DNA of 64,000 bases, taken from the IMG/VR virus record IMGVR_UViG_3300045988_079613. The stretch is one strand, 5' to 3'. Of this stretch, positions 28,601 through 48,734 are shown one piece after another. A model generated the notes under the pieces. It made no database searches and had not been told where the DNA came from. It worked only from the letters and a program-made list of their open reading frames with translations. The translations under genes and the position numbers were made by a program. Every line of letters begins with the position of its first letter. Positions within the stretch are counted from its first letter, which is position 1. Source of the DNA: a virus.

Positions 28601-29846
28601 CATTAAGCTTATAATCTGATAAGTTTAATGGACACATACAATCATGTTTTTTATCTATAGATGATAATACCTACTTTAAAGTACTATCTGTAGGAGTAAC
28701 AGATATACTAGATCCTGAATCAGCTGCCTATAATATTAACTTGTTACTTCCAGTAAATCTATACGACCTAGCATCATACTCTTCTCCATTTATCATTGGT
28801 TTCCAAGTAGTTTCTCTGACATCTGCAGCAAACAATATATTATCTTTCTTTTCTAGAGTAGCTACAGTGAAATCACTACCGATGTTAGCGTTAAATTCTT
28901 CTATAGTTACAGTATTCAACGTTTTATTACCTAAATCGGTATATGTTAAAGAATTACCGGAAGGTAAATCTATTTCGTCAATAACATCTATATTAGCTAT
29001 TTCGGTATTATCCACGTATTGTATTCTTACTATTCTACACTTGTCAAATAATCCAGAAACTACATTAGATAAATCAATTACAATATTAGCACTTTTGCCA
29101 GTATTGACATCTTTATTTACTCCTTGATATTCTGCAGAATCGGTAGTAGTATTACTAGATGTTAAGTGCATAGTGTTGCTAGCAGGAGCATATCCAGTAC
29201 TAGAACCTCTTTCATTATATAACTGATAAGTGTACTATACTTGTCCAGATAATAATGACCCATTAGTTCCAAGACTAACTATTTTAGGAGCAACTAGCAA
29301 TGTGCTTGGTATTATGTCCAACGAATCCGGATTCTTTATATTACCTTCTTCATCTAATGCTGGATTAGCACCTTCAGAGTTTTGTACGTATCTATCGCTC
29401 ATTATATTTAGTGATCTAATACTACTCTCTCCATCTGTAAAATACATTTTAATAATAGAATCAGATTCATAGTTAGCAACTATTTTAACTCTGCTAAATC
29501 TGTTATAATTAAGTCTTCCTTTTAATACTAGTGTGTGCTGTATTAATCCTTCTTCGTAACCCTCTACTCTATATATTCTAGTTATACCATATGGATCTGC
29601 AGTGAGTATGATACCATATTGATTAATTATGGCTGTAGCTAATACTACCTCGTCACTATCCATAAAATCACCACCTTGTATTAATCTAGTGCTTTGTATA
29701 TTCTAAAGTACTCCACTAGTACCATCTTTATTAGTAAGGATACGTACATTTTCTGCATACCTGTATTGTGATTCTGGTATAGCAGTAATATCAATATCCA
29801 AATTCATCCCTTCGATGAAACTATTCGTCTAGAAAGTATTACTCAT
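25674..29846 (-). CDS. Large tail structural protein, 1390 aa
   Basis: Track ORFs 26376..26594, 26775..27290, 28446..28637, 28728..29171 and 29235..29663 are co-framed. About 24 in-frame TAG. ATG at 29844-29846, TAA at 25674-25676. Confidence 0.6.
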
Positions 29847-30561
29847 AACATTTCCTTTCTGTATATTTCCATTTATACCCACCAGCTGTTTTATGAATTT
29901 TTTTCAAACTAAGAACAGATTGTATAGCAGTTTTAGCGATTCCTGTACATTTACTAGCACAACGTATAGATTTATAAGTATTCACTAAAACGTCGTCTCT
30001 AGTAAACTGAGACACAGGTTTACAATTTGCATATACTTCTTTTCTAGTCCAACTTCCGATATTCTAAGTTTTATTGTAACTCCACTAAAAACCTTTGTAT
30101 GATTTTTTATTCTTTCTGTGCTCACAACAACCTTTAATGTTGTCAACATAACCGTTTATTGATTTTGCTGCAATTAATAAATTATCATAACTACATATGT
30201 AATTTCCATTCATATCATAACAGTGTACCTATTTTCCACTAACTTTATTTATATTATAATTTCCACACTGTTCAATATACTTATTCTCTAAAAATTTAAT
30301 AGTGCTACGATTGTCTTCACATTCTTCTAGTATTATAAATGAGAATTTATCTATACCGAATATATCTACAGCGTTCTATAAATTTATATTGTGACATTTT
30401 CCACAAGAAAGATTCTACAAATGAAAACCCAATCTATTTTTTATATTTGTTGAAGATCCAACGTACATGTTATTATCTATATCATTTCGTATAGCGTATA
30501 TTCCACAACAGAAGTTACGAATTGAATTTATATTTTTTCTGGTAAATTTATAACATTTCAT
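29839..30561 (-). CDS. GIY-YIG homing endonuclease (free-standing), 240 aa
   Basis: GIYAIRN..MYVGSSTNIKNRLGFH N-terminal GIY-YIG motif, then two NUMOD1/IENR-like helix-turn-helix repeats. 5 in-frame TAG. Sits between two intact genes, with a TAATATG junction upstream and an 8-nt overlap downstream. Confidence 0.7.
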
Positions 30562-30562
30562 A

Positions 30563-31480
30563 TTAGTAATTATTCTAGTTATATATCTATTGTTCCTCAC
30601 CCAAATGTTCAAAAAAGCTATCGTGTTCTCCTAATTCTGGATATAAACGGTTCCACTAATTTTGAATACTATGAAGTTCGTCTGGACCAGGCATCATAGC
30701 TTCAGCATAAGCCTATCTTCTGTAGAAGTTCCAAGAGTTTTTCATATCGTAATATATATTCTATGACATCTACCCTTTCAAATATTTAGGATAAGATAAT
30801 TTCATCGCTACATACCAGAATATGGCTTCAAAATAGGAAGGATTGTCAGGTATCATAGGCATACTATCTTCATCCGTAAATATTGCATGATAAGATATCT
30901 TCACCCAACCACATGGAACGTTAACTGTAATATATCCTGGTTTAGTAGAATACTAAAGAGTACTATTCATTACAGAAGGGTTACCGGGTATTAATCTACC
31001 ATTTACACTAGGTATAGTATACTGATTTACTAGAGCGCTTAGTGTATTTCTTATGTTAGGATCAGAATTAAGTATCTTTAAAGCATCCTTATCTTCTATT
31101 ACATTATACAGATTCTTTACTAGTGGTAATAAAGCATCATTTTTTACCAACATTTCTGGATTACAATTGTCATTGCAACACTTCTTATATATACCAAAAG
31201 AGTTAGTCACCTTTCTCATTGGTAACCAACCGCAATCGTTGTTAAATGAAAATGCAACCTAATTCATTCTATACAGATCACATGGTAATTTAGCTTGATA
31301 ATTCTCAATTGGAATATTAACTACTTTATGTTCTAGTTGCTATATGGCACCTATTTTTTCCATAGCTTCACCAATCCATTCGGAAATGTCTGTTATTTTT
31401 ATTTCATCTTCTTTTAGATCTAAATCGGCTATGATTTTAGCTAACACAGCCTTTGAACTAACTAATCTATTATCTATCAT
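30563..31480 (-). CDS. Structural hypothetical protein, 305 aa
   Basis: Contains track ORF 30953..31219. About 9 in-frame TAG. ATG at 31478-31480, TAA at 30563-30565. Confidence 0.55.
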
Positions 31481-31485
31481 AACCG

Positions 31486-31932
31486 TTATTTGATTTCTAG
31501 GTAATCGTATTCTTTATTCTTAATTATTTGAGCTAATCTTCTTTTATTGGCTCTAGTTGCTACAAACTAATATCTTGTTTTATTAGTTAATAATGATTCT
31601 TTTTTAGACCACAAAAATCTGTACTTAAAATAATTGGAATGTTCATTAATAAAATAAACAGCTTTACCCTGTATAGCACTTTCATGATAGTCTATTCTAA
31701 GACTCTTGTTATCAAAGTTTTTAGGCTATCTCTTAACAATACTTAAGTACCCTAATCTACACGGTAATCTAAATTCTTTACTATGCTCCATTATTTCTTC
31801 TACTATAAATCTAAAGTAATCTTCAACTATCTGTCTATATACTTTGTAGTCAACATCGTATACAGTATTTCTTTCTATATTAGATAAGTAGAACTAATAG
31901 AAGTCCATTATAGTATATGATTTCTTATTCAT
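31486..31932 (-). CDS. Hypothetical protein, 148 aa (weak HU/IHF-like resemblance)
   Basis: Absent from the track because of 3 in-frame TAG. The ATG overlaps the upstream TAA (TAATG). The LPCRLGYLSIVKR segment resembles the HU/IHF beta-arm, but the functional call is weak. Confidence 0.45.
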
Positions 31933-32588
31933 TATTGCTATTGTTTATATATGTTCTACATATCGTCATTAGAGTTATTAGTAGTATCCGTAGGCATCTT
32001 AGGCATAACATTCAGCTCTTTACTGAATATAAGATCTTTTATAGTAGGAATCATATGTGCTGGTGCTGGATACGGCCCGTCCGGATCAAAGCATTCATTA
32101 GCATCTGCAGGATTCTCTAGTATAACATCAGCCTCTATATATTCTAACTGATTGTTACCTCCTTCTACGTATATACGACTGTCTTTTAAGTAAGCAATAT
32201 AATCCTTACATGTATATTTTCTATACTTCTAAAGTTTCATTTTGGACTCACTACCTAACTATATCAGATTACCATACATATCCTTTACAGAAACTAGACC
32301 TGTTCTGAAGTGAAAGTCTATGAGTTTAGGTAACGTTATATCACTAACATATACAAAGTGACCTGGTATACACTCTTTCCTTTCTAAGTGTATACATCTA
32401 ATAGTTTGAACATACATGGGATTGATATCTCTACCCTTATCTATGTCTTGCTTAATTAGTAAAGCTCGGTAATTGTTAATCCATTGCTCTATCTATATTC
32501 TACTTATGTGTTCTGATTCAGAAACAGAACTATTGCGCAATTCAAGTAAAATATCATCAATAACAGTATTCAATGTGTTTAATTTCAT
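31932..32588 (-). CDS. Structural hypothetical protein, 218 aa
   Basis: Absent from the track because of 5 in-frame TAG. ATG at 32586-32588, TAA at 31932-31934. The read-through translation is coherent. Confidence 0.5.
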
Positions 32589-32699
32589 AATGCATTATTT
32601 ATTAAATATATCTATAACGTATTTTAAGGACTTTTTAGACACTTTATATGTAAAGTAGTACAATTGACAAGATATAGTAATAGCGTTTAAATAAAAGGC

Positions 32700-32731
32700 T
32701 TAAAATAAAAAAGGCTAGTATTAACTAGCCT
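32700..32731 (-). terminator. Rho-independent terminator
   Basis: Hairpin AGGCTAGT-loop-ACTAGCCT (32712-32731), followed on the minus strand by TTTTTTATTTT. The upstream gene's TAA lies in the loop. Confidence 0.7.
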
Positions 32732-33287
32732 CATTCATTGCTTTTTGCATATTCTATGGTAACATCTATTTCATCTAAGGTGGAACCATATTTCCTGCTT
32801 GTTTTATCAAATTCTTAAGTTCACCTACCTGATCTTGTAGTTCCTTTATTCTAGGATCTTCTTTATCAGGTTCTTTGTCATTATAATCTAACTACTTTAA
32901 TATTGATTCACATTTTGCCATTTCTTCGTCATACTTTGCCATTGCTTCTTTTTTAGCTTTACACTCATCGTAGTTAGCTTTAACCATATTAATTATTTGT
33001 TGTTTATCAGTTGCTACTGTTAAACCTATTGAACCATCTGTTACTATTGACTTGTTATCTTCTACAGATAACTTCTTTGATTCTCCATCACAGCTGATTA
33101 CTATGTCTACTAACTTCTTTCTAGTCTAGTTAGGCATAGGAAACTACTATGGTGGTAATGGTTCATCATATACTTTGGACACATTGGTAACCATTCCTTT
33201 ATAGTATGTAGTACTCTTCTTAAAAGTACCAACTACTTCAAGTACATGGATAGGTTCTCCAATGTTTAATTGTGAAAATGTAATCAT
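32721..33287 (-). CDS. Hypothetical protein, 188 aa
   Basis: Absent from the track because of 7 in-frame TAG. ATG at 33285-33287, TAA at 32721-32723. Confidence 0.5.
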
Positions 33288-33306
33288 AATAAGTACTTGT
33301 TTTTAT

Positions 33307-33326
33307 AAGGGCTCCGAAGAGCCCTT
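33307..33326 (-). terminator. Stable hairpin with a UUCG tetraloop (terminator-like, no clear U-run)
   Basis: AAGGGCTC-TTCG-GAGCCCTT on the minus strand, immediately after TAA 33331-33333. Confidence 0.4.
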
Positions 33327-33330
33327 GTTG

Positions 33331-33774
33331 TTAAGCTGCAGGAGCTGCAGTTGGTGTTACAATGTGGTTGACTACTTGGAATATTCCATTACACTTATTA
33401 TAGTATACGAAATATTTATTTCCAACTGTAACCTCTTGATTAACCATCTGTTCTCCAGAACCGTTTATTAACTATTTTCCACCAGCAGAAATGTTACTTG
33501 AAGTATTAGCATTAGAACTAGTATGAGTAGGATCTATTAAGATAGGAGCTTCTGCAGGAGTACCAGCAGCTGGAGCATGCTGTACATTCAAAAGTAATAT
33601 ACCTTCATTTGGTAATTGCCTCCATTGATATGGACACAAACCGTAAGTAACCTGGTTGGCTTCAGTATCTGTAGTCACGTAAATTGTACGTGCTACAGGT
33701 ATACCGGCTCTATCTAATCTCTATACATTATTTCTACGGGGAAATCCGTAACCGAAATTATAGAAAGGATACAT
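33331..33774 (-). CDS. Hypothetical protein, 147 aa
   Basis: Extends track ORF 33472..33678 through 2 TAG. The ATG at 33772-33774 is preceded by AAGGAGGT with 5-nt spacing. I saw no comparable Shine-Dalgarno sequence at the few other gene starts I checked. Confidence 0.55.
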
Positions 33775-33790
33775 AATTACCTCCTTTCTA

Positions 33791-34639
33791 TTAGCAACCA
33801 CATCCATCGTTGTATCCGAATGCTCCATACGCGCCATAGCAGCAGTTAGGATTCGGAACTACGTATGCAGGAGTAGGACACGGAGTCTTTAATTGAGAAA
33901 CAATATTAGCTGTCTGAGCTTGAGTAAGGGCTGCTGCTTCTAGAGCTGCTTTTTCACTACGCAATGTATCAATCTTGCTTTGCATTTCACGCATTTCAAG
34001 CTGACAGAATTTATCGTTGATTATTTGAGTTTGAGCGTCTATTTTAGCACCCAAAATATTAAATTGAGTATTAGCGTTGCTAGTCAGAGTATTCGTCTGG
34101 TTTACTATAGCTAACTGACTTTCATAACCCTGAGTAGTTATAGCATTACGAATATCGCAGCAGCAAGAAGCCAACTGAGATGCAAGGCTTGCATTACCGC
34201 TCTGGATAGCGTTGATTACTTGTGCACCTGTCAATTTAGTATCACAAGCGATCTGGCTAACACTAGTATTAATAGTGTTCAGTGCATTCTGTACTGCATT
34301 AATATCACAATTCAAAGTATTAGACAAAGTAGCGATAGCTTCTTTGTTACCATTGATTGCTTGCATTAGCAGATTAGTGTTGGCATCAGTATTTAATTGA
34401 GAAGCAAGCTGTGAAGCTTCACCGCTTCTGTTACCGAAGCCATTACCACCCCAACCGCCCCAAACAAAGAACAGTAAGATGATCCAGATCCACCAACAAC
34501 CGTTGCCACCGAAACCTCCATTGTTATTCATCATAGCCATGAGAGCTGCAGGGTCCATACTTTTATTACCATTCTGCATTAATGCAGCTAGACCAGCGTC
34601 AAAACCACGGTCTTGAACAATAATTTTATCTTCTAACAT
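33791..34639 (-). CDS. Membrane-anchored Gln/Asn-rich protein with a Cys-rich C-terminus, TAG-free
   Basis: 282 aa. Hydrophobic WWIWIILLFFVW segment, a long Q/N/A-rich helical region, and a C-terminal NPNCCYGAYGAFGYNDGCGC. Every Gln is CAA or CAG. Visibly GC-richer than its neighbours. Confidence 0.7.
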   Translation of the reverse strand: MLEDKIIVQDRGFDAGLAALMQNGNKSMDPAALMAMMNNNGGFGGNGCWWIWIILLFFVWGGWGGNGFGNRSGEASQLASQLNTDANTNLLMQAINGNKEAIATLSNTLNCDINAVQNALNTINTSVSQIACDTKLTGAQVINAIQSGNASLASQLASCCCDIRNAITTQGYESQLAIVNQTNTLTSNANTQFNILGAKIDAQTQIINDKFCQLEMREMQSKIDTLRSEKAALEAAALTQAQTANIVSQLKTPCPTPAYVVPNPNCCYGAYGAFGYNDGCGC

Positions 34640-34671
34640 AATTGATTTTATTTAGGATTGATTTAATTTGA

Positions 34672-35274
34672 TTAATATCTAATGTAGCGCACAGAACGAC
34701 CACGTTTGAATTCTTCTTCCATAGGAAAGGATTTTTCTCTTTCTCTCTCCTTCTCAAAGTCTCTTTCATCGTATTCTCTGTCGTATTCTCTACGTCTACC
34801 ATATGAAGATCTACCCATTCTACGGTAGTTTCCATAACGTTCCTCTTCGTCATCATCTTCGTACTTGCTGTAATGTCTTTCATAAAGATCTTCTTCAGCG
34901 TTTCTAATCTTATCACACATGACATAAATATAGTAGAACCACATCTTACCTTCATCTATATCTTTGTCACAGATCCAAGCTTTAGCTAATTCTACGAAGA
35001 ACTTCGTATTGTTAGTGCCGGTAATGTTAACAATGACACGATAGTAATCAGAGTATACCATATTCAATGCAACGTACCAATCATATTTGTTTATCTTTTC
35101 ATCTAAACGAATACCATATTGATTAGCTAATGCTGTAGTTTCTTCTAATGACCAATGTTGACCTCTTGTTCCGTCTTCATTTTCCATTTTATTTACAGCT
35201 TTACGAGCATGTTCTTCATTGAAATGAGGACCGTGTTCAGCTTCATAAGCTTTTGTACGGATTATTCTATGCAT
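34672..35274 (-). CDS. Hypothetical protein with an Arg/Glu/Asp/Tyr-rich tail, TAG-free
   Basis: 200 aa, uninterrupted, TAA stop. C-terminal RREYDREYDERDFEKEREREK low-complexity tail. Confidence 0.65.
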   Translation of the reverse strand: MHRIIRTKAYEAEHGPHFNEEHARKAVNKMENEDGTRGQHWSLEETTALANQYGIRLDEKINKYDWYVALNMVYSDYYRVIVNITGTNNTKFFVELAKAWICDKDIDEGKMWFYYIYVMCDKIRNAEEDLYERHYSKYEDDDEEERYGNYRRMGRSSYGRRREYDREYDERDFEKEREREKSFPMEEEFKRGRSVRYIRY

Positions 35275-35309
35275 ATTATTATTGATTAATTTATGTTTAT
35301 AATAATAGT

Positions 35310-35948
35310 TTATTTGATTTCTATTATTCTGGTATCAGTTACTTTGATAAGTTTATTGGAATTATCTATAGTAAATTTGCGAATTTTATCTTTTTTAAAG
35401 TCAAAGTGAAAGAACCTGGACAGCCACGATTTGTACTAATTACGATACACTTTTTTTTCTTCTATGAACAATGTCTAAGCATTCTTCAAATCTAATGTGA
35501 CTGATAAGATTGAATCTTTTCTACTTACTATGATTGTCGTTAATTTATTGAGTTTTAACTTCTTACTAAAATCTGATTCTTTTGTTTGGATTACTGTTTT
35601 GATTGAATCCTTTACTTCTGTATTGATTACTTGAGCTTGTACCAGGTTCTTATCTTTAACTTTTAATTTCTTTTTGGTTTCATTAAGCTATTCAATTATA
35701 CTGTCTTTACTACATTTTAACTAATCTATAGTAAGCTATAATGTTCTATTAGCCTAATCTTTCTTGTCAAATAGAGATTCATAGTAACTAGTATTATTAA
35801 CTAGCCTAGCTATCTCTGCATCCTTTTTTTTCAGTTGGTTGTACATAAAAAAAGCACTTACCGTTAGAATACATATGAAACTTATGGTAAGTGCTTTGAA
35901 ATTTCCTTTCAACCAATTAACTACTGTGAGTATTGCTGTTATTATCAT
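35310..35948 (-). CDS. N-terminal transmembrane plus coiled-coil protein (i-spanin-like), 212 aa
   Basis: Extends track ORF 35754..35948 through 6 TAG to TAA 35310-35312. TM segment ALTISFICILTVSAFFMY, then a K/E/L-rich helical region. Overlaps the holin 3' end by 32 nt. Confidence 0.5.
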
Positions 35949-36450
35949 TATTGGTATTTTTTAAATCATTAATGTCAATATCTACTCCGAGATATTTCTC
36001 ACCTTTAGATTTGATAACCTTTCCTAAAACTTTTTCTATTACTTTACAAATCTTGCAATCTGGATGTAAATCTTTCATAGATTCAAGCCAAGATATAAAC
36101 TCTGTTCCACATATCATACCAGATATAAACTCTACAGCATGCAAATCTATAGAAGTAACTATACTAGTATCTATTACATGTGCTCCTGCTATCAACAGTA
36201 CAGCCTCAAATAACTTATTTATAGTCTTCCATAATTTGTAGTACTCTATCTACTTATGACCATACTTACGAGAAACTTTATAACCAAGAATTACATCTAC
36301 AATGATAAATAAACATACGCAAACAACAGTTACTGAAATTGGTGTAAAGTAGCTAGTGATTCCCGCTAGTATTCCAGCAGATGTTTTTTGTGCACTGCTG
36401 AACATACTTTTTAATAGTGTCATAACCGGATCTCCTATATTGTGAATCAT
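35917..36450 (-). CDS. Holin (Phage_holin_4_1-like), 177 aa, needs one TAG read-through
   Basis: Track ORFs 36250..36450 and 35917..36195 are co-framed and joined by a single TAG at 36250-36252. The fused protein has TM helices and a VDVILGY..K..G..K...LLIAGAHVID layout typical of that holin family. Confidence 0.6.
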
Positions 36451-36463
36451 AGCAAGTGTTTTG

Positions 36464-36500
36464 AAAAGTAAAACCCTAGCTGATAATTAGTCTGCCAGGG
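36464..36500 (-). terminator. Rho-independent terminator between the DGR RT and the holin
   Basis: On the minus strand, CCCTGGC-13 nt loop-GCTAGGG (one G-U pair) followed by TTTTACTTTTC. It ends about 15 nt before the holin ATG. Confidence 0.5.
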
Positions 36501-36563
36501 CTGATAATATTGTTTTGATATACTTATAAAACGTATATATTTATATATAGTTTCTTAGTCTAA

Positions 36564-37571
36564 TTATTCTTTAATATATTCTAATAGCTCTTTATATTTA
36601 GACATTTTATTTAATAAGTTACGTCCATTACAGTATTTAATCCAACCTATATAGCTACATATTTTTTGCTTATACGTATCTTTATCTAGGTTCTATTTTT
36701 TATTTAACTTGTTTATCTTTTTGCAGAATCTCTTTTTTATACGCTTTCTTAATAACGTATGAGTATGAAATACTCTATATCCTACAAAATCTATACCTCT
36801 CGAATCTACCTTAAATATCTACCAATTATCTTTAAAGTTTAACTTTAATTTATTATTAAGATAATCCTGTATGTTATAGAATAAATCTCGTAACTACTAC
36901 TTATCTCCACCTAATATTACAATATCATCTGCATATCTAAAGTAGTATCTAACTTTCTTTTGTTCTTTAATCCAGTGATCTAAATAAGTAAGATATAAAT
37001 TAGCAAAGAACTAGGATAAGTAATTACCAATAGGTACTCCCTAAGCTGATTCTATTATTTCATCTAACAGACTTAATAGTCTTTTGTCTTTTATTTTTTT
37101 CCTTATTATTGTTTTTAATATATCATGATCTATAGAAGAATAGAACTTTCTGATATCTAACTTTAAACAGTATTGCGTATTTATTTCATCCTTTAAAGCA
37201 AATTTAACATCTTTCAAAGCTTTGTGTATACCGCGCTTTCTAATGCAACTATAAGTTCCTTTTATAAATGCAGATACCCATATAGGCTCCATTATATTCA
37301 TAATTGCGTGATGTACAATTCTATCAGGATAGTATGGTAGCTTAAATATTTCTCTTTCTTTTGGTTCATATATTTTGAAAACATAATATTCGGAAGTTTC
37401 GTATTCCCCATTTATTAGTTTTCTTTGTAGATCTAGAAGTAACTTGTCTTTGTTCTTATCAAATAACATTACTTCAGGTCTATGTGATTTCTATCTTCTA
37501 GCTTTTTTATCAGCCTCATATAAGTTATCTAAACTTACTATTTTATCAAATAAATTATTGTATCTTTTCAT
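36564..37571 (-). CDS. Diversity-generating retroelement reverse transcriptase, 335 aa
   Basis: Track ORF 37041..37469 extended through 7 TAG (37491, 37041, 37011, 36897, 36894, 36819, 36693). Motifs PYYPDRIVHHA, GVPIGNYLS[TAG]FFANLYL, YADD (36924-35) and GIDFVGY. ATG at 37569-37571, TAA at 36564-36566. Confidence 0.85.
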
Positions 37572-37700
37572 CTGAAATCCTATTTCGAGTTTTCACAAAG
37601 TTACTAACACGAAGATTTTAATTAGTCATTTTTTACCTAGTGGTAAAGTCTCCTCTAACAGTTTTTTCATCTTATTATTCAGATGTGTTTTGTTAAGGTT

Positions 37701-37796
37701 TCAGTGTACTGACATTGGCATTAGCATTGCTAAGTGTATTGTTAGAATTCAAATTGAGCAAACTGGAATTCGTACTATTACTAGTGTTACTGCTTA
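37701..37796 (-). repeat. DGR template repeat (TR)
   Basis: 96 nt, aligned gap-free to 37845-37940 with 71 identities. 23 of the 25 mismatches are at TR positions that are A on the coding (minus) strand. The TR frame is rich in AAC and AAT codons. Confidence 0.85.
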
Positions 37797-37827
37797 ATGA
37801 CAGAGGACAACTTTATCTATATTTAAA

Positions 37828-39069
37828 TTACGGTATATAGATCAACCGAGTACCGACATAGGCACTAGCATTGCCAAGCGTATCGCGAGAACCCAAACCG
37901 AGCCAACCGGAATACGCACTATAACTAGCGCCACCGCCTACAATTAAGGTTCTATTTGAAGTGCTATTATTGGTATAATTATAATCACACCAGTATGTAG
38001 TAGCACTTCCTCCATATGCCTCATCAATTGGTGGAAACAAATCAAATGATTCATTATAAATGAGTCTCTTCTTATAACCATCAGTAGTTACAGTACTACA
38101 TTGTAAGTTATAATCTGAAATGTTAGTCGAACCAAATTTACTTACATCGGTAGTAACATAAACGTCATTTTTCGTAGAAGTTGCATTATAATGTATAAGT
38201 GTGTCTATACAATTTTTCCATACGTGACCGAATGGATTCTCTATTCCTCTGTAAGTAGGAACACTGTAAGTCTTCTGAGTAACAACTCCCTCTGCATCAC
38301 TGCTATCAACAGTAACTGAAGTAATTCCTGTAGAATTACCGTGTTCATCAGTACTACCACAGGGTATGAAATTATATTTAGCTACTCCGTTCACTTGTAT
38401 ACTACCAGTAGTAACACCATCTCCTAGACCTCCCTGATGATAACCTTCTGCAGTTAATTCAGCATTAAATGCTTTTTGAGAATTAGTACAAGCATATTCT
38501 ACTAAATATAGTATAGTAAGTACCTTGTGTGCATTATAAGTATATATATTCCAATTAGTACTACCGGCCTTATTAGCCCTAGCTCTTTGTTGCATTGTGG
38601 TTCTTGCAATATTAACTGAAGGAGTAATATTATCACCTTTAATAGACTTATATACATCTTCAACATTAGATGCTTCGTATGCTGAAATATAGAACTTCTC
38701 TACATGCTCTACTCCAGGTATCATGGGATCTGCAGGATACAAATTTAGATATACGGTATTGTCATCCTTCATACACTTATACCAAAACTCAGGTATTTCT
38801 ACCATAGTATTTAAAGTCATATCTCTATCAGAACCATCTTCATATTTAGTTCTATCGTCTGCTTTAAGATATTTAACCACACCATCAGCAGTAAGTGTAC
38901 ATGATTTCATTTTAGATTGAATCGGTAATTCTTTATGCCAAGGCATATAACCAATTCTAGTCAAAGTAGTACTTTGAGGTTCTATAGGGAAACTAACCCC
39001 ATAATAATTAGTAAATACGTTAGCGTTTCCTAAACGGACAGCTACAATATTTTTATCTCCAAGTTCCAT
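37828..39069 (-). CDS. DGR target: receptor-binding tail fibre tip protein with a C-terminal variable (C-type-lectin-fold-like) region, TAG-free
   Basis: 413 aa, uninterrupted. The VR covers the last ~35 codons. The C-terminal pattern GGG..S.W....S......N...VG.RL matches Mtd/CLec-type DGR variable proteins. Confidence 0.8.
   Translation of the reverse strand: MELGDKNIVAVRLGNANVFTNYYGVSFPIEPQSTTLTRIGYMPWHKELPIQSKMKSCTLTADGVVKYLKADDRTKYEDGSDRDMTLNTMVEIPEFWYKCMKDDNTVYLNLYPADPMIPGVEHVEKFYISAYEASNVEDVYKSIKGDNITPSVNIARTTMQQRARANKAGSTNWNIYTYNAHKVLTILYLVEYACTNSQKAFNAELTAEGYHQGGLGDGVTTGSIQVNGVAKYNFIPCGSTDEHGNSTGITSVTVDSSDAEGVVTQKTYSVPTYRGIENPFGHVWKNCIDTLIHYNATSTKNDVYVTTDVSKFGSTNISDYNLQCSTVTTDGYKKRLIYNESFDLFPPIDEAYGGSATTYWCDYNYTNNSTSNRTLIVGGGASYSAYSGWLGLGSRDTLGNASAYVGTRLIYIP
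37845..37940 (-). repeat. DGR variable repeat (VR) at the 3' end of the target gene
   Basis: Cognate of the TR, offset +144. Encodes GGGASYSAYSGWLGLGSRDTLGNASAYVGTRL. Confidence 0.85.
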
Positions 39070-39071
39070 AA

Positions 39072-39578
39072 TTATTCGTAAATTAAGTATAATGTTTTAG
39101 AATTTTTATTAGGTAATGCGTTATATTCTGCTTGAGTCATAGTAACTATGTTGTTAACAACCTCTGATGATATACAATTAGTTAAATCTACAGTTTCTGA
39201 TAATTTATCCCATTCTGCTGGATCAGCATTAATGCATACATAATTAGCTCCTGTATCATCCACGTTGTACACATCTCCGACTACAGATACCTCAGGTAAA
39301 GAATCAAAGTCTGCTACAGTACCTTTTACTCTATATACAGATGCTACCTTAGCGTCTACCTATTCCTTATTATAGGTATCAGACTTATCTGCTTTGTTAT
39401 CAATCTTCTCTTCTAGTTGTTCTATTACTTCTGTATCTCCACTGATAGGAGCCCAACCAGAATTCTTATAAACTTTAATTACAGCACCTGTTGGATCTTC
39501 TTTTAGATCAATCCAGTAATTTACTTCCTTAGGATCTGGAGCTGTAACACTGGCTTTAAAATTTATGTTTTCTTTCAT
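39072..39578 (-). CDS. Tail fibre N-terminal adaptor protein, 168 aa
   Basis: Track ORFs 39360..39578 and 39072..39272 are co-framed and joined by a TAG at 39360. The N-terminal motif PDPKEVNYWIDLKEDPTG..IKVY is shared with the fibre at 43557..44894. Its TAA is 2 nt before the DGR target ATG. Confidence 0.6.
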
Positions 39579-39587
39579 TGTTATATG

Positions 39588-40142
39588 TTATTTACTTAAG
39601 TTTATAATTAACTTATCTGGATATCCAACAGTATAGTCATAATTGTTAATTTGTTCTTTACTGTTTAGTTTTTTAATGTTGGCTATATGTTGTTGAGTAG
39701 TATTATAACATTCAGATGCGTATAACTCTATATTATCCATTATACTGTCAAATTGGTTTAATGGTATGATAGTCTTATTATTATTGTACCATACGGTTAT
39801 ATCTGCTTCTCCATTAGCTTTTTTGATATTGGCTAATTCTCTTATAGATAATCTCTCCGTTTTATTAAGCCAAATGGAAGCTCCGTCAATAATTACAGAA
39901 TTAACAATATCTGATTTATCATACCGCTCTATATTCTATATAGTTATCTTCTTTACTTCGTCTATAGTAGCTACGTAATCTACAGCTATAGGATACCCAT
40001 TCTCATCTTCAGATATTAATTTACCTTGAGATTGAGCAAATAATAATTCCTACCAATATTCTTCTGTTATTTCTACCCCTCCGTCTACCGGTTCACAATA
40101 AAACCCTTGTTTCCAATATATTCTATTACTTATATTCTTCAT
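39588..40142 (-). CDS. Tail-fibre chaperone/assembly-like protein (DUF4376-like), 184 aa
   Basis: Absent from the track because of 2 TAG. ATG at 40140-40142 in a TAATATG junction. The functional call rests on weak resemblance and its position after a fibre gene. Confidence 0.45.
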
Positions 40143-40143
40143 A

Positions 40144-43100
40144 TTATCTTTTCCATTTACCTATTGCTATATAACTTACTGGTTGTGTAGTATATGCTGC
40201 CGAAGTACTCATATCAGCTTCTGTCGCTCTATATGTGAAACCAGCCGCGTAAACCTATGTAACTACTGCACTATACATATTACGATAAGTATTATTATTG
40301 GTTTTGAATGAGACCATTACAGTCCATGGAACAGCGTAAAAACCAATAGGAAACGTTACAGTTCTTAACTCTGTAGAAGCACTAGGTGTATGTGTACCCC
40401 AGCATATCTATAGTCCGTTTATAAATCTCTAATATCCATCAGTATTAAATCTACTGCTTTCGTTCCAATTTTTCATACTAACAACAGCCTGATCGTTAGT
40501 AGTAAATGTGCCACTATCGTAGTCTTCAACATTAAATACTTCAGATATACAATTTCCTTGATCGTCTATAATGGAAGCATATACTGCAACCCCATTAGAC
40601 AAACCTCCGCTGTCTAAATCAGAGTTTGCTATAACCATTGGAAATGTACCGTAGTCACCTTGAGGGTTACCATAATATAAGAATTGATACTCGTTTAAAT
40701 CTACATCATTATTTATTTTTTTTAGTATAGCAACATCTGCACTATTGAGAGTGACATAAGTACTTCTATCTGTCTTAAATAAATCATTAGTAGTAAATAT
40801 TGCTACTTTACTATTAGCAGGTTCACCTTGAGGTCCTTGTGGTCCAACATCACCTTTATCTCCTTTATCACCTTTGTCCCCCTTCGGCCCAGTAGGACCA
40901 GTGTCTCCTTTGTTTCCTTTCGGACCCTATTTTCCTTGCAATCCTGTATGACCTTGAGGTATACCAAATCTGAATGTTCTGGCACTAGCTGTACCACCCA
41001 TTGTTACTGTTGCTTCTGAAGTATAAGGTAGAGTAACAGCAGATACCTCTGTAATAGTTGCTGCAGTACCGGTATCACCTTTAGGTCCCTGAGCCCCTGT
41101 ATCACCCTTGGGTCCAGCTTCACCTCTAGAAGGTTTACCGGTATTAGTATCTCCTAAATACCAGTTACCATTGGAACCAATAGTTGGTGTTATACCGTTC
41201 TCACCTGGATCCCCTTTATCTCCCTTAGGCCCCGATGCAGATGCTGGTATGTTAATTGTTTTAGCTGCAGATCCATCCCAAGTTCCTGTTACAGCTCCAG
41301 TAAATGTCAATGCATATGGAGTTGGCAGTTTATCCGCTGTAGTAGCTATTTTCTTCCAAGTGTTCCATCCGGCATCATTTATCGCGTCTCTGAAAAATAG
41401 ATGATCTCTGTCCCCATGTGATAAAGCTAATTGCAACGTAAAATTGCCTGTATTGCCAGGTAATATAGAAGACGAACTAGCTATTTGTACTATTTCTCCA
41501 TATAGTCCACTAATTGGAATAGTACCTTCATTATCTGGAGCATATGCTCCAAAGAACGAACCAGTCACTTGATCTATATTATTAACATTTAGCAATCTAG
41601 TAAAATCAGTAACTGATTTAGTAGTTCCGTTACCAAGCAACATATGAGAACCATCTGAACCAGATACTACATAACCGGTTGCCCATAATCTAGATGAAGA
41701 GTCTCTCTATGCTACAGAATTAGCAACAGAAGATGAGGAGAATGTAGGTTTATTAGCTATATTACCCCAAGTTAAATCATTGTAATAGGCTAAAGCTTTC
41801 CATTCTGCATCTGCCAATGTTCTAGTAGTCCCATTGAAATCACTTCTAACATACATTCTTACTACCCTTATAGTACTCTATCTTAGATCTGGAATATAAA
41901 ACTAAGTGATACTAGTACCGCTAGTAAAACTTAAGAACTACCCATAATCATATGATCCGGTTCCTAAATCATCTGCATTAGTATATCCTATAGCTTCTAT
42001 GTAACACGTATCAGCGTAATTTTTACTTACTGGACCAACGCTCTTAGCATACTTATTAGAATCCTTACCATCAAGCAATTGAGCATTAAGATTAGTAACC
42101 AAATTAGTATTAGTCATAGTACCACCAGATAAACTAAGTTTACCAGATAATCCACTATTCAATTCTGTCTTAGTAGCTAACGCACTAGTATCGGGTATAG
42201 TAGGTTTATTAGTTAGATCATTATAGTTACCAGAGAATTCAATAATCTCAGACCATGCAGCATTTCTTCTACCATATTTTTTATTATCCTTTGGTGCTTC
42301 ACCTACTTCTCCAGCTCCTGCTGTAATTTCAATATTACCTGCTCCAACTAAAGATTCCCCATTAACCGTCTTTATGTTAGTACCACTTACCAGGGTGTTT
42401 TGTTTCTACGAATCTAGTGCGTATATTTGACCTACTAGGTTATTCTCTACCTCTGTAGCTCTAGCAGTTTCTGCTTCTATTGATCCTATCAACTGCTAAT
42501 TAGATTCTTCAAACTCTGATCTAACAGAATTAATAGCTGCAGCTACACCTGTTAATTTTACACCATTAGGGCCTACTGTCAAATATGAATCTGATGTAGA
42601 GTCTATAACTACATTAAATTTATTAGACGCAGCAAGTTGTAACCCATTTCCAGCAGTATATACATCTACTAAATCACCTATGTTAACCCTTACTATAGAA
42701 TCTCCATCTTCTGCTACAAAAGTGAATACTAAACTAGTAGTATCTGCATCATATACAACTCCTTTAAGAAATCTATCTTTAGGTATACTAATTTCTCCAG
42801 CATTAATAGAATCTACCATTAATGTGTAATGCAAACTATTCTACTAATCCTAGATCAATTCTACTGATGCTACTTTACTATTTTGGAGATTAGTTATTAA
42901 AGTGTCTTGTGCGTCATTACGATTCTTCTCAGTAGTAATTTTATTAGTATTAGCATTTTCTGCATTAGTAGCTCTGGTAATTTCATCAGTAATTCTTTGT
43001 CCTAAAGCATTATCTGCGGCTTTGTATGCAGTCTCAACTTCATCTATTCTATCAGAAAGACCACTATCACTACCAATTGATTCTTTCAATTCTGTAATAG

Positions 43101-43542
43101 ATTCTTTAACATAGCTATCTAAGGAATATACAGAACCAATTATTTGATTCTCTGCAGTTTGTGCTCTACTTATTTCTGTATTAATAGCATCAGTATTCTT
43201 TGACTCAGCAGCTTTAGCTCTATCTGATTCATCTTTAATAGCTTTAGTATTAGTTTCTTCAGCCTATTTAGCTCTAGCTATTTCATTATTTATTTTTTCA
43301 AGATTATCTGCTTCTGCCTGTTGAGCTCTTGCTGTTTCTGCAGACACACTATTCTATATGTCTCTTTCTGCTTGAGTAGCTCTAGCAATCTCTTCATCGA
43401 GTTCTGTTTTTAAGCTATTCGTACTCTGGTTAATATCAGATTGGTACTTCTATAAATCTTTATCCCAAGTTTGATCGGTATTGACTATCTTAGGATCTGT
43501 AGTATCATTAACCAGGGTACCATATATTTTAATGTTTGCCAT
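40144..43542 (-). CDS. Tail fibre with coiled-coil, SGNYNDLTNKPT motif and collagen-like G-X-Y tracts, 1132 aa
   Basis: Track ORFs 40429..40638, 40927..41643, 41938..42162, 42496..42834 and 42850..43089 are co-framed. About 16 in-frame TAG. E-x-x-RA-x-x-AE heptad-like repeats lie N-terminally. G-X-Y runs at 40822-40950 and 41070-41240. Confidence 0.7.
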
Positions 43543-43556
43543 AATATATTTTATTC

Positions 43557-44894
43557 TTATCCAATTGTAAAATCAAACGTTCCAGCATTAAGCTACCCAC
43601 TTGTACGATAACATTTATATGTACCCTTGCTATCTACAGTTACTGAAATAGGATTTTCCATGGGAACTCCAAATCCAGAAGATGTCACTTTAGATATATT
43701 AAAATTAGATGGTACGCATAACCATACGTAATCACCTTGATTTACATTCATAGAATATGTCCCATTTGGTGAACTCTTGATAGGCTACTTAGTAAAGCCC
43801 GTTATATCTGTAGAAGTTAAACTGGTTTTTGGAGAATGACCAAAAAACATAGGGTAGTATGTACGAACTGTTGCAGTAGCTGATTTTTGTACTTCATTAC
43901 TTATTATATCTACTCTATAGACAACACTATCGCTAGTAGTATCAAGATTATCTGTAATGCCATTAAGGTTATCTACTGGAGTATTATGTATAACTACAGA
44001 ATCTCTTTTAAGAGTTACACTCTATGGAATAAAAGGTTCATTGTTAAATAAGAATCTACCAGCCATTTTAATAGAAGTAGAAACTCCTTTTTCGATTATA
44101 GTGGGAGAAACTGAAAATCCTGAAATAACTGTAAATTGATTATACAGTACTTCCCACACTTCTTCGTGTCTACCACCTGCGATCTATCCATCTAGAACCT
44201 TAATATTATTTATTAAATCTTTAGAATTACTAAGATAATTAGTATCTGATAGATCTGGTAGATTTCCATCACTAGTAATACCTATAATTCTATTGGTATT
44301 TGATAATTGTGCTCTGGTTGCGTAAGTATTCTAAGCCTCTTCTTTAGTAAGATACGGGGACAAATCTATAGGGGCTTGATATTCTCCCATCAATTCCCAA
44401 TGATTATTCACATATATGTACTCTTTCCATATATTACCTTCCTCTCCGTCTTCATCTAATACCAAATATATTTTGGTAGGATCAATATCTTCAGTAGGTA
44501 ATTCAAGTACTACCTTATATAAAGTTAAGTCTACTATGCAAGATATTACATTATCAGATATATTGATACCAGCACCGGCTACTAACTTATCTTGTTTACC
44601 TTGTTTTAATGACTCTATATCTTGATCTACAATAGCTATTTGACCCTCAATAATCTTAATCTTCTCATCTACACGTTCTTCGTATGATTCTAATTGCTAT
44701 TGTACATATTTTTTAATCTTCTCTTCAAATTCTGGTAGTGTACCTTCTAATACTCGAAGAGTTTCCCAATACCCTTCCGCATTCCAAGATTTAATACTAC
44801 CTCCTAGAGGATCAGTAGCCAGATCTACCCAATACATTACTTCATCTGGATTAGGCTAAATATCTGTTGCTCTAAAGTTTACAAATCTTACCAT
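43557..44894 (-). CDS. Tail fibre protein, 445 aa
   Basis: Absent from the track because of 7 TAG. ATG at 44892-44894, TAA at 43557-43559. The N-terminal PNPDEVMYWVDLATDPLG..IKSW adaptor motif is followed by a coiled coil. Confidence 0.55.
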
Positions 44895-44968
44895 TTTTCT
44901 GTGCTTATTAACTATTTTTTAACTGTGTATAGTGCTGGCATTTCATCAAAGTTTCACTCTCATTTACA

Positions 44969-45025
44969 CTCTTGCGAGGAACAAGGTTACGCTTGTCTAT
45001 TTCCTCTTGAGGAACCTCTTGCAAG
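44969..45025 (-). promoter_or_regulatory. Repeat- and palindrome-rich element in a 190-nt intergenic spacer
   Basis: CTCTTGCGAGGAAC (44969-82), hairpin ACAAG-GTTACG-CTTGT (44982-97), CTCTTGAGGAAC (45004-15, inside the palindrome TTCCTCTTGAGGAA) and CTCTTGCAAG (45016-25). Function unknown. Confidence 0.3.
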
Positions 45026-45085
45026 TCAATTGTTGGGAATACAGTGTATTTCATATGCTTTACTATTGAATTACTATCAGACTAA

Positions 45086-46900
45086 TTATACTTGCTCCCA
45101 AGTAACACTCCCATCCTCGTTGAAGATAATTCTCTTACCTGCTATCTCAACTACTGTATGAGAAGATGAACCTATTATGATCTGATTACTATCGGATGCT
45201 TTAACATTGTACCCTATAACAATAGAATTTTCTATCACTGCCGGAGTGCTCTTAGAATGCAGTTTAGCTAAATGTCCTATACAGATATTATTCTTACCGT
45301 CGACATCATAATTGTTCATTGCATCCATTCCTATAGCAACATTTCCTTCACCTTCTATATACAATGCAGCATTAGCCCCGACAGCAACACATTTAGTGTT
45401 ATTACGCACACCAGCAGATGCCCCGACAGCAACACATTTTGATTTAGCAAAATGTGCAGAACCACCACTTAATGTTCTATGCCCTATAGCTACGTTATCG
45501 ACGAAATCATTGCTATTTGTCTGCCCTAACGCATTTGTCCCAATTGCGACATTGCGTTCTCCTTGCCCTCTAACCTCTCCCAATGCAGCCTTACCTATTG
45601 CTACATTATCCTCTCCTTTTGGTATATACCACGCCGCATCAGAACCTATTGCTATATTTCTATCTCCCTCAATTAGGCGCGTTAGGGGGAATGTTCCTAT
45701 ACCGATATTCCTTGCTCCATATTTTAAGGAGCTTAACGATCTCTGACCTATTGCAATGTTGCGGGATCCATTCTGGTTCTTTGCAAGGGCATCGGTTGCA
45801 CCTATTGCAATGTTCCACCAGCCTGTAATGTTATCTGTCATTGTGCCTCCTTCAACATTTTCGTAGTGCTTATTACTATCAGAATCAAGTTCTACCTCTA
45901 TTGATGCCTCATCCTCAGAAACAATTTTACGAAGTTCCACTCCATACACACTTCCATCATATGCTGATGATGCGGTAATTTTAAGACTACCACCGTCCGA
46001 TATCATACCAACATAGAATTTACCTAACGTTCCATTATAGATATCACATAATCCCCCCTCACCGATACTAACACAAACATCCTTTTCGTATGTGCCGACT
46101 TTAGAATAATTGAATATTGCTACATATTTTTCACCCTCAATAGTAGCATGATCAAAAATAAGAGTATCTGTATTGCCTATAGCATGCGTATAAACCCCTT
46201 CTGTGTATTGCCAGTTATCTCCATTGCCAACAATTGAACTGATAAGGTTATCGCCAAGATATAATTTTTTACTTACTTTTCTACGAATGCAAGTTTTAAT
46301 ATCTTCGGATTGAATATCTTCGTCAAGAGTCACAATCCCATCTGGTCCAACTCTGAGAAATTTCCCTGCGTTGTTTATTCCTTGCTGTTTATCAACCTTG
46401 CCATTTATTAATCCAGATTCTGATTTGTATTCAATATTGGTAGGTTCATAGCTTACTCCAGATGAATTAGCGCAATAGACATATAGGTAATTACAATCAG
46501 AAGGTAATACTATCTCAAATGGAAAGTAGTGAGTCTCAATGCTTGTATATCCGTCACAAGCATTAACAATTGAACCGGATACGAAATCGCAATCTTTTAC
46601 AGGCAACACGGAGGCTCCATGAGCCGTATCTATCGGTGTAATCATCAGATTTCTTCCCGCCACAACAGGGATAACCTTGTGCTTTGTCAATCCATAATTT
46701 CCATTAGTTCTGAAAACTAAATCACTACTTGTAATTAATCCACTCCGATAATCATACAAATTCAAGTCGATTGCTTGGGCTTCAATACCAGTAATTTTAT
46801 CTACCTTTGAAAATATTTCCTCAAAGTTCCCATCAATCGCAGCAGCTAAAGTACCCCATGATTTTTCAGAGTCTTTTGCTATATCAAATATCTTTTCCAT
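45086..46900 (-). CDS. Tail spike/fibre with YadA-head/Hep_Hag-like N-x-AIG repeats, TAG-free
   Basis: 604 aa, uninterrupted. At least ten repeats of the form (R/D)N(I/V)AIG..A. at 45300-45760. C-terminal IIFNEDGSVTWEQV. Visibly GC-richer than its neighbours. Confidence 0.75.
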   Translation of the reverse strand: MEKIFDIAKDSEKSWGTLAAAIDGNFEEIFSKVDKITGIEAQAIDLNLYDYRSGLITSSDLVFRTNGNYGLTKHKVIPVVAGRNLMITPIDTAHGASVLPVKDCDFVSGSIVNACDGYTSIETHYFPFEIVLPSDCNYLYVYCANSSGVSYEPTNIEYKSESGLINGKVDKQQGINNAGKFLRVGPDGIVTLDEDIQSEDIKTCIRRKVSKKLYLGDNLISSIVGNGDNWQYTEGVYTHAIGNTDTLIFDHATIEGEKYVAIFNYSKVGTYEKDVCVSIGEGGLCDIYNGTLGKFYVGMISDGGSLKITASSAYDGSVYGVELRKIVSEDEASIEVELDSDSNKHYENVEGGTMTDNITGWWNIAIGATDALAKNQNGSRNIAIGQRSLSSLKYGARNIGIGTFPLTRLIEGDRNIAIGSDAAWYIPKGEDNVAIGKAALGEVRGQGERNVAIGTNALGQTNSNDFVDNVAIGHRTLSGGSAHFAKSKCVAVGASAGVRNNTKCVAVGANAALYIEGEGNVAIGMDAMNNYDVDGKNNICIGHLAKLHSKSTPAVIENSIVIGYNVKASDSNQIIIGSSSHTVVEIAGKRIIFNEDGSVTWEQV

Positions 46901-47273
46901 AATTATTTTTAATTAGTTTCTAATTCTAAATTAATGTAGCATTCTTTATTAATACTGTGTAATTCACTTCAGGAGGTACTGGAGTTGATATCTATAGTTT
47001 CCATTCCCCCAACACCACAGCTCCTAAATCTGTATATAAATTTATTCTAATCCAAGAATCTTTGAACTCTGATAGATCTATCTTATTAGTATTAGAATAA
47101 TACCTAATAAGCTTACTATCTCCATTAGCAATTACCTTTACTTCTATTATTCCGGAATACTTGGCAGGTTCAATGGTAGCATCTTTCTATTCCACTAACT
47201 AACCATTCAGATTTGGAAATACGTAATAAGCCTGTGGATTAATAAATATAGGATTATATAAAATTGTTTTCAT
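46884..47273 (-). CDS. Hypothetical protein, 129 aa (110 aa if the first terminal TAG, 46926, is a stop)
   Basis: Absent from the track. 3 internal TAG plus TAG at 46926 and 46920. Read-through ends at TGA 46884-46886, 17 nt inside the next gene. Confidence 0.4.
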
Positions 47274-48431: not shown

Positions 48432-48465
48432 AATTTACATATTTAGTTAATAATAATACTGAACG

Positions 48466-48732: not shown

Positions 48733-48734
48733 AA

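Follow-up and report, generated by a model that had tools for sequence, protein, structure and literature searches.

The question raised by this locus is whether a stretch of viral DNA carries a working diversity-generating retroelement (DGR) and, if it does, of what kind and in what phage. The stretch, IMG/VR record IMGVR_UViG_3300045988_079613, is 64,000 nt long and is referred to below as the window; the locus occupies positions 36564..39069 on its minus strand. The original prediction described a complete DGR, with a target tail gene that ends in a variable repeat (VR), a template repeat (TR) and a gene for a reverse transcriptase (RT). The DGR reading was borne out, as the enrichment of differences at adenines, the type of the RT, the fold of the target and the variation of the VR among related phages all favour it. 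The locus is very probably a functional-looking DGR without the accessory protein Avd, carried by a TAG-recoded crAss-like phage of the genus Buchavirus, family Suoliviridae.

Template and variable repeats

As shown by realignment on the minus strand, the TR (37701..37796) and the VR (37845..37940) form a gapless alignment of 96 nt in which 71 positions are identical and 25 differ. Adenines of the TR account for 23 of the 25 mismatches (17 A>G, 5 A>T and 1 A>C), and the remaining two, at TR 37760 and TR 37703, are both T>G. The counts and the two positions are exactly those of the original prediction. The TR holds 35 adenines in 96 bases; for 23 or more of the 25 mismatches to hit adenines by chance, the hypergeometric probability is 2e-11. 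The adenine enrichment thus stood up to a computational check. A separate repeat search recovered the two as direct repeats of 91 nt (37706-37796 and 37850-37940), in which 21 of the 22 mismatches are at TR adenines. The repeat interval first given was kept with a core of 91 nt; its last 5 nt lie in the diverged 3' flanks, where homology stops near 37706 and 37850.

The 91-nt core of the VR (37850..37940, minus strand) codes for approximately residues 377-407 of the target and ends 5 codons before the stop codon of the target gene; nothing else in the window matches the TR at its non-A positions. The 96-nt interval spans approximately residues 377-409, which places the VR at the C-terminus of the 413-aa protein as had been claimed. 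The TR core (37706..37796, minus strand) is non-coding and contains 33 adenines in 91 nt. It sits in the 256-nt gap between the target and the RT gene, with a spacer of approximately 129-134 nt up to the RT start, where about 130 nt had been predicted. Translated in the VR frame the TR reads SSNTSNSTNSSLLNLNSNNTLSNANANVS, and AAY makes up 10 of its 29 codons, in agreement with the richness in AAC and AAT noted earlier. Substitution of adenines turns no TR codon into TAA, TGA or TAG, and approximately 6e17 peptide variants would be possible if all TR adenines were used. No second VR was found in the window on either strand, the next-best match of the TR having at least 29 mismatches in 58 non-A positions.

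Hypervariability restricted to the positions of TR adenines, which the original prediction had proposed to look for, was seen in seven near-identical genomes and in 74 related loci. The close relatives were seven IMG/VR genomes that share an exact 33-mer located between VR and TR. Their identity to the window is 96-98% in the target gene and the RT, 98-99% in the TR and 76-85% in the VR. When the eight VRs were compared, 28 of the 34 TR-adenine positions varied, against 4 of the 57 other positions (Fisher p=1.5e-13).

A wider set was obtained by a protein-guided scan of IMG/VR, which gave 316 relatives of the RT. Eighty loci were taken for the TR/VR search, and a pair was present in 74 of them. 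The finder accepted no more than 2 non-A mismatches in a 50-nt seed, while extension past the seed was free of that limit. Throughout the 74 loci, 1777 of 1794 TR-VR mismatches were at TR adenines (A>G 58%, A>T 24%, A>C 18%), a figure of 99% that is partly built in because the seed criterion favours adenine-specific pairs. The same loci contained 71 distinct VRs against 25 distinct TR cores, and this contrast of conserved TRs with unique VRs is not produced by the seed criterion of the finder. The cassette order holin-RT-TR-VR/target was also found in Blohavirus, Birpovirus and Afonbuvirus, so that it spans three subfamilies of Suoliviridae.

Four adenines of the TR, at 37794, 37791, 37764 and 37710, correspond to G in every VR examined, giving the glycine codons GGC GGT, GGT and GGT. 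Either glycine is under strong selection at these positions, or the two end ones lie outside the segment that is replaced.

The element has been lost in the sister species cr109_1 (Buchavirus splanchnicus, NC_055892.1; locus 2551..2789). There the target, the VR and the hairpin and RGTTG motif described below are kept, the RT is lost, and the TR is reduced to a short remnant of its 3' end with G in place of TR A. This is a natural case of DGR loss with a frozen VR.

The reverse transcriptase and the TAG codon

The RT gene was located at 36564..37571 on the minus strand and encodes 335 aa when TAG is read as glutamine (Pfam RVT_1, E=8e-17; PHROG 1423, E=6e-125). Its frame contains seven in-frame TAG codons (codons 27, 177, 187, 225, 226, 251 and 293) and no TAA or TGA. 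The gene given in the original prediction is thus full length with TAG as glutamine, but it is not open in the standard code, in which the call of open reading frames (ORFs) returned only a 142-aa fragment. The motifs GVPIGNYLSQ (GxxxSQ) and YADD are present, and the Q of SQ is TAG codon 187. When 70 unique RTs of relatives were compared, the position of codon 187 was occupied only by TAG (42) or a glutamine codon (27), and that of codon 251 likewise only by TAG (26) or glutamine (43). The TAG codons at the SQ and WQ positions align with glutamines of PDB entry 8ub7. The gene is complete only under TAG as glutamine and is not decayed.

To distinguish a DGR enzyme from group II intron and retron RTs, as the original prediction had proposed, the RT was compared with structures and family models. 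The best PDB match was 8ub7_A, a 328-aa 'Reverse transcriptase' (E=1e-54, residues 2-324), which from its 328-aa length is taken to be the bRT of Bordetella phage BPP-1; the best group II intron RT gave E=2e-19. The scores in NCBIfam were 117.8 bits for the group II RT/maturase TIGR04416 (cut-off 300), 57 bits for the retron RT NF038233 (cut-off 235), 75 bits for Drt3a (cut-off 200) and 45 bits for Drt2 (cut-off 390), the last two like the others far under their cut-offs. No group II intron or retron RNA of Rfam was detected in 36400..39200 at E<=1. By its matches and the GxxxSQ of its motif 4, the RT is of the DGR type.

The reading of TAG as sense extends over the whole window (1..64000) and especially over the minus-strand block 3851..63656. 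ORF coverage of the 64-kb window (ORFs of at least 100 aa) rises from 0.61 in the standard code to 0.97 with TAG as sense; recoding of TGA or TAA gives a far smaller gain. TAG makes up 33% of the Gln-type codons in the late gene block of the window. In uncultured phage cr56_1 (Buchavirus faecalis, NC_055890.1), a collinear relative of the window, a gene for a tRNA with anticodon CTA lies at 92120-92199, just past the region matched by the window. The phage of the window is recoded from TAG to glutamine (genetic code 15), the tRNA(CTA) itself being seen only in cr56_1. Such recoding has already been established in Suoliviridae, with proteomic data included (PMC10136315).

By its closeness to cr56_1 the window is assigned to Buchavirus, within Crassvirales, Suoliviridae, Loutivirinae. 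The 2.8-kb DGR locus is 94.8% identical to that of cr56_1 and the region 35257-40899 is 95.7% identical, while identity of the locus to two other Buchavirus species is 76-77%. The window and cr56_1 are collinear but mosaic, with 93-96% identity in most shared blocks. The Crassvirales rank with the most abundant viruses of the human gut, and no member of Suoliviridae is known to have been cultured.

The target protein and RNA elements

The target gene (37828..39069, minus strand) is an ORF for a 413-aa tail protein (PHROG 5302 'tail protein', E=5e-77). Neither single-sequence nor profile searches with the target gave a match in Pfam, NCBIfam or PDB. As the sequence searches found nothing, the fold was assigned from the predicted structure. 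An AlphaFold model built with 70 diverse homologues had a pLDDT of 94.2 and a pTM of 0.92; with 52 close homologues instead (mean column identity of 95%), no usable model resulted (pLDDT 27.9). When the confident model was searched against PDB with Foldseek, the best matches were two variable proteins of DGRs, TaqVP (5vf4, E=2e-8, probability 1.0) and Mtd (1yu4, E=0.011); TvpA (2y3c, E=0.85) stood lower down the list. Searches against viral models gave crAss-like tail proteins with TM of 0.81-0.88 and many 'tail collar fiber proteins'. The model thus supports a C-type-lectin/formylglycine-generating enzyme (FGE)-like fold, as in TaqVP and Mtd, and the C-type lectin fold that the original prediction had suggested checking for was recovered.

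Homologues of the target numbered 1550 representatives and were mostly aligned through the C-terminal approximately 400 aa of proteins of 400-1600 aa. The target is a stand-alone version of a module, probably for receptor binding, with which long fibre proteins of other phages end. The gene directly upstream (39072..39578) carries the tail-tip domain Phage_tail_C of Pfam; the more specific label of fibre adaptor, given earlier, found no support. The target gene contains no TAG codons (0 of 9 Gln-type codons, P=0.027). Several other late genes are likewise free of TAG, and we do not regard its absence from the target as significant.

Sequence elements that may direct homing were sought around the two repeats. 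A candidate for the initiation of mutagenic homing (IMH) site, GTCGGTACTCGGTTGATC, is located at 37840..37857 on the minus strand, where it covers the 3' end of the VR and the bases right after it. It resembles the 3' end of the TR without matching it exactly (GTCGGTACTCGG.. versus GTCAGTACACTG..), and its region is nearly invariant in all relatives; by analogy it may function as IMH. The candidate IMH* element, GTCAGTACACTGAAACC (37697..37713, minus strand), lies at the 3' end of the TR and can fold into a 4-bp hairpin, UCAG..CUGA. The pairs of this hairpin are invariant, so that covariation speaks neither for nor against it. The IMH* region is, by analogy, likely to be where cDNA synthesis starts. 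The VR is followed by an inverted repeat consisting of ATCTATAT, a 12-nt loop and ATATAGAT (37815..37842, minus strand), which spans the stop codon of the target. In cr52_1 the stem is ACCTATAT/ATATAGGT, with one compensatory change, and the length of the loop varies among relatives. This repeat is a weak candidate for a DNA hairpin of the type used in homing by Bordetella phage.

Three helices were predicted in the RNA on either side of the TR, using RNAalifold on 7 sequences and then on 36 unique sequences. The 5' strand of helix P1, AGUUGUCCUCU (37803..37813, minus strand), is just upstream of the TR at a conserved RGTTG motif, and its 3' strand, UAGAGGAGAC (37648..37657, minus strand), is downstream of the TR, so that pairing of the two would loop the TR out. 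Nine of the 10 predicted pairs form in 35-36 of the 36 sequences, with the types CG, GC, UA, AU and UG, and one position alone shows CG, GC and UA. In one register the cognate arms read TCCTCT/AGAGGA, TTCTCC/GGAGAA, TTCTCT/AGAGAA, CTTCTC/GAGAAG, TCGTTC/GAACGA and CAGTC/GGCTG. A control with non-cognate arms was weak (57% of the wrong pairings still reached at least 5 bp) because all arms are pyrimidine-rich or purine-rich; support for P1 was taken from the fixed register and the changes of pair type in the 36-sequence alignment.

Hairpin P2 (UUACC-ACUA-GGUAA), followed by an A-run AAAAA, occupies 37627..37647 on the minus strand directly after P1. It has 5 bp, with a compensatory change of AU to GC in some relatives, and corresponds to the 5' part of matches to the Rfam motifs RT-18 and RT-17. 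The stem-loop P3 (37582..37618, minus strand), just upstream of the RT start, has conserved UAGUA and GAAA internal segments and shows covariation at several pairs. Compensatory changes in the 36 unique sequences thus support P1, P2 and P3 as predicted. The Rfam matches in the window scored 32.0 bits for RT-18 (37570..37645) and 27.6 bits for RT-17 (37558..37650), with E=0.0008-0.006. At the orthologous sites of L098 and cr6_1, RT-17 reached 49.8 and 44.5 bits, above the gathering score of 40.4, and elsewhere the scores were 33-37 bits. Judged by these scores, the copy in the window is a divergent homologue of RT-17/RT-18 rather than a certified member.

Rival readings, proposed mechanism and neighbouring genes

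Several observations weigh against a working DGR in this genome. Hypervariability was judged from related assembled genomes and so speaks for activity in the lineage rather than in this very genome. Most of the IMG/VR loci come from the single dataset 3300045988, and the 99% adenine figure carries the bias of the finder mentioned above. At TR 37759 the window has a private G, against A in cr56_1 and all seven close relatives, and at VR 37904, one base from the counterpart of 37759, there is a private non-adenine T>G difference (TTG>TGG, Leu>Trp); a point mutation, an occasional error at a non-A base or conversion from VR to TR could be the cause. The IMH-like sequence is AT-rich and resembles the TR end only loosely. 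The inverted repeat after the VR, with an 8-bp stem of -3 kcal/mol (z=-1.2), is energetically not significant, and single-sequence folding of the DGR RNA gave z=-0.74, no better than shuffled controls; because the folding z-scores are not significant, the structural claims on the RNA rest on covariation. The matches of the spacer RNA are under the gathering scores (32.0 versus 41.3 for RT-18, 27.6 versus 40.4 for RT-17). No tRNA genes were found in the 64-kb window, so the suppressor tRNA is not inside it. An Avd gene was not seen either: there was no Pfam Avd-type match in the window among 10 small ORFs (E<=1) and 10 cassette-adjacent proteins, nor any Pfam match to Avd among 30 small ORFs of the cr56_1 genome.

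The description of the DGR as complete consequently holds for the RT, TR, VR and target, which are intact, but not for an Avd accessory gene. As Avd is essential in the Bordetella system and none was found here, the RT either works alone or has an unrecognised partner, and a divergent or unrelated partner is possible. About a quarter of DGRs are without Avd, as is that of the LMMB lineage of crAssphage (PMC7290462).

Some of these points would suit a decayed or frozen DGR, once active in the lineage and now immobile here, with a VR that is merely an inherited variant. The private substitution at TR 37759 and the non-adenine VR difference fit such a history. Decay occurs nearby as well: cr109_1 has kept the target and VR without the RT and most of the TR, and most cassettes of Alpha crAss-like phages are incomplete (PMC7290462). 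The RT of the window, on the other hand, is of full length with all motifs, and at the positions of its seven TAG codons relatives carry either TAG or a sense codon. Relatives that each have a different VR share with the window, at 98-100% identity, an intact TR, P1-P3 and IMH-like region, and the 71 distinct VRs in 74 loci also speak against a frozen element. We consider decay in this genome improbable.

Two further explanations would remove the DGR altogether, and to both we give next to no credence. An RT frame with seven stops could be a pseudogene, with the diversity of the VR arising from recombination among phage strains; the frame is indeed interrupted in the standard code, and the window is without a suppressor tRNA. 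Yet the interruptions are all TAG (7/7), reading TAG as sense lifts the ORF coverage of the window to 0.97, and TAG alternates with glutamine at conserved positions of the RT, the SQ motif of the catalytic site included. TAG also supplies 33% of the Gln-type codons of the late block, cr56_1 has a tRNA with anticodon CTA, and recombination would not restrict the differences of the VR to TR adenines. It is equally hard to sustain that the RT is the enzyme of a group II intron, of a retron or of a defence system (Drt/UG), with TR and VR being an ordinary diverged duplication. The mismatches are specific to adenines (p=2e-11), a pattern recurring in every relative, and 8ub7_A, presumably the enzyme of BPP-1, outscores any group II RT by 35 orders of magnitude. 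The RefSeq record of cr56_1 does carry the note 'Intron reverse transcriptase', and the group II RT/maturase, Drt3a, retron RT and Drt2 models of NCBIfam all gave sub-threshold matches, but these are far under the cut-offs (118/300, 75/200, 57/235 and 45/390 bits, respectively), and neither a group II intron nor a retron RNA of Rfam turned up in 36400..39200 (E<=1).

As far as analysis of the sequence goes, both of these explanations are refuted: the pseudogene with recombination by the TAG-only stops, the alternation of TAG with glutamine and the confinement of differences to adenines, and the group II intron, retron or Drt identity by the scores below cut-off, the lack of such RNA in the searched interval and the adenine pattern.

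With the DGR reading, the following course of events is proposed. A transcript running from approximately 37815 into the RT gene would carry the 91-nt adenine-rich TR. The TR would be looped out by the long-range helix P1, followed by the short stem-loop P2, the A-run and the second stem-loop P3, which together would form the RT-17/18-like element. The 335-aa RT would be made only when a phage tRNA with CUA anticodon, encoded outside the window, decodes TAG as glutamine. The RT would then bind the RNA and copy the TR into cDNA, misincorporating opposite template adenines, and the cDNA would replace the 3'-terminal VR in the gene for the 413-aa tail protein. Up to approximately 19 codons of the ligand-binding face of the C-type-lectin/FGE-like domain could thereby be randomised, so that receptor specificity would shift. 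By analogy with the Bordetella system, priming may occur in cis, P1 and P2 may act as a stop of reverse transcription and a positioning element, and the IMH-like sequence and the hairpin after the VR may take part in homing. The role of the target in receptor binding is suggested in the same way, and the presence of the DGR singles out the 413-aa protein as the likely one to bind the receptor. If it works, a DGR that acts on a tail-tip protein would explain how these phages could follow their Bacteroidales hosts as the surfaces of these change.

This is not a new element: a locus approximately 95% identical is already present in RefSeq in cr56_1, and ours is an addition at the level of strains. 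In cr56_1 the gene order (holin, RT, TR, VR/target, tail genes) and the spacer RNA are the same and TAG is read as sense; its VR and TR are 69% and 85% identical to those of the window, respectively. RefSeq describes gp50 of cr56_1 as 'Reverse transcriptase' (intron reverse transcriptase) and gp51 as 'tail protein; similar to sulfatase, major tropism determinant', and the record has no TR, VR or DGR feature. The modest additions made here are the coordinates of TR and VR, the dependence of the RT on TAG decoding, the population evidence across Suoliviridae and an RNA architecture that would tie Rfam RT-17/18 and an element resembling the cPRT Stop of BPP-1 to an Avd-less DGR.

The first DGRs of crAss-like phages to be described, in 2020, were those of Alpha genus I, with the order target-VR-TR-RT and no avd (PMC7290462). 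The cassette of crAssphage LMMB (genus I, Alpha) resembles that of the window in its order, target-VR(IMH)-TR(IMH*)-RT, in the lack of avd, and in a tail (collar) fibre target with a C-terminal VR of approximately 35 codons (PMC7290462); about 21 adenine and 2 non-adenine substitutions were reported for this type (Morozova et al. 2020, PMC7290462). The LMMB target, called a tail collar fiber protein, shares its fold family with the target of the window. LMMB differs in belonging to Intestiviridae, in using the standard genetic code and in having a target of 486 aa, and the DNA similarity between the two RT genes is approximately 69%, over only part of the gene. DGRs with amber codons inside the RT genes were later described in the Epsilon and Zeta crAss-like groups (PMC11054128, PMC12386605). 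The Zeta elements share with ours the amber codons, the GxxxSQ motif, C-type lectin tail-fibre targets and, mostly, the lack of Avd; they are found in another phage group with genomes approximately twice as large, and some have Avd and several TRs. DGR cassettes in Suoliviridae are stated by one paper, which cites Yutin et al. 2021; the main text of Yutin et al. makes no mention of DGRs.

The comparison with BPP-1 (Mtd, Avd, TR, bRT) bears on the mechanism. Homology between the RTs extends over the full length (E=1e-54, if 8ub7_A is indeed the BPP-1 chain), mutagenesis is adenine-specific, and the VR is at the C-terminus of a receptor-binding protein with a C-type lectin fold. Cryo-EM of BPP-1 has revealed a 'cPRT Stop', needed for reverse transcription, in which sequences from the two sides of the TR pair as a duplex that is followed by a short stem-loop and unpaired adenosines (bioRxiv 10.1101/2023.10.23.563531). 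The RNA of the window has the same outline, a duplex bracketing the TR, a stem-loop and adenosines, and a like function may be supposed; the published survey of cPRT Stop conservation covered Avd-containing DGRs only (bioRxiv 10.1101/2023.10.23.563531). The window differs from BPP-1 in that no Avd was detected in it, in its spacer RNA (RT-17/18-like versus RT-10), in its AT-rich IMH-like sequence and long-looped hairpin after the VR, and in an RT that needs amber suppression. The motifs RT-1 to RT-19 adjoin RT genes; RT-10 corresponds to the TR-RT spacer of BPP-1, and it was speculated that others belong to other DGRs (Weinberg et al. 2017, PMC5737381). For RT-17 and RT-18 no function is given in the Rfam name or in the main-text section on RT motifs (PMC5737381). 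The spacer RNA of the window resembles RT-17 (RF03020) and RT-18 (RF03021) in lying directly upstream of an RT gene on the same strand and in its two hairpins with UAGUA...GAAA, and differs in that P1, enclosing the TR, lies beyond the stretch matched by the models.

A broader proposal, which we put forward tentatively and as possible rather than probable, is that crAss-like DGRs work free of Avd with an RNA architecture of the Bordetella type, that RT-17/RT-18 are the 3' half of an Avd-independent DGR RNA, and that the RT is tied to an amber-suppressor tRNA. If so, diversification would be limited to the phase of infection in which TAG is decoded. The covarying helix around the TR and the link to RT-17/18 would give a testable handle on priming and stopping in an Avd-less DGR. 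Such cassettes will escape DGR finders and standard-code gene callers, because TAG codons break the RT.

Elsewhere the window differs from cr56_1 in divergent giant virion proteins, an apparently swapped tail gene (45086-46900), extra genes (33791-35274) and an extra HNH gene. Two giant ORFs on the minus strand, 8269..21732 (4487 aa, 78 TAG) and 3851..8272 (1473 aa, 23 TAG), show 67-70% identity to cr56_1 in patches or no match, a divergence far above that of the rest of the window; their counterparts in cr56_1 are labelled 'nuclear pore complex protein-like' and 'hypothetical' in RefSeq. Three homing-endonuclease genes are located among the structural genes on the minus strand (29839..30561, 58178..59191 and 60748..61323), two of them of the GIY-YIG/NUMOD1 type and one of the HNH/NUMOD4 type. 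The HNH gene adjoins the major capsid gene (59273..60742). In cr56_1 the gene is missing and its two flanks meet at 82388/82389; it is therefore a recent insertion.

Two TAG-free genes at 33791..34639 and 34672..35274 (minus strand) are absent at this place in cr56_1 and present in cr52_1 and cr53_1. One encodes a 282-aa Gly/Cys-rich protein ending ...CCYGAYGAFGYNDGCGC, called 'spike protein/glycoprotein' in relatives, and the other a DUF7841 protein. A further TAG-free gene, 45086..46900 on the minus strand, encodes a 604-aa tail-region protein with repeated 'NIAIG/NVAIG'; the segment 44899..47030 is without a match in cr56_1, and the gene looks like an exchanged cassette for a tail fibre or spike. 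An N-terminal motif (PDPKEVNYWIDLKEDPTG, PNPDEVMYWVDLATDPLG) is common to two tail-region proteins, those of 39072..39578 and 43557..44894 (minus strand), and may be a shared module by which alternative distal tail proteins are attached.

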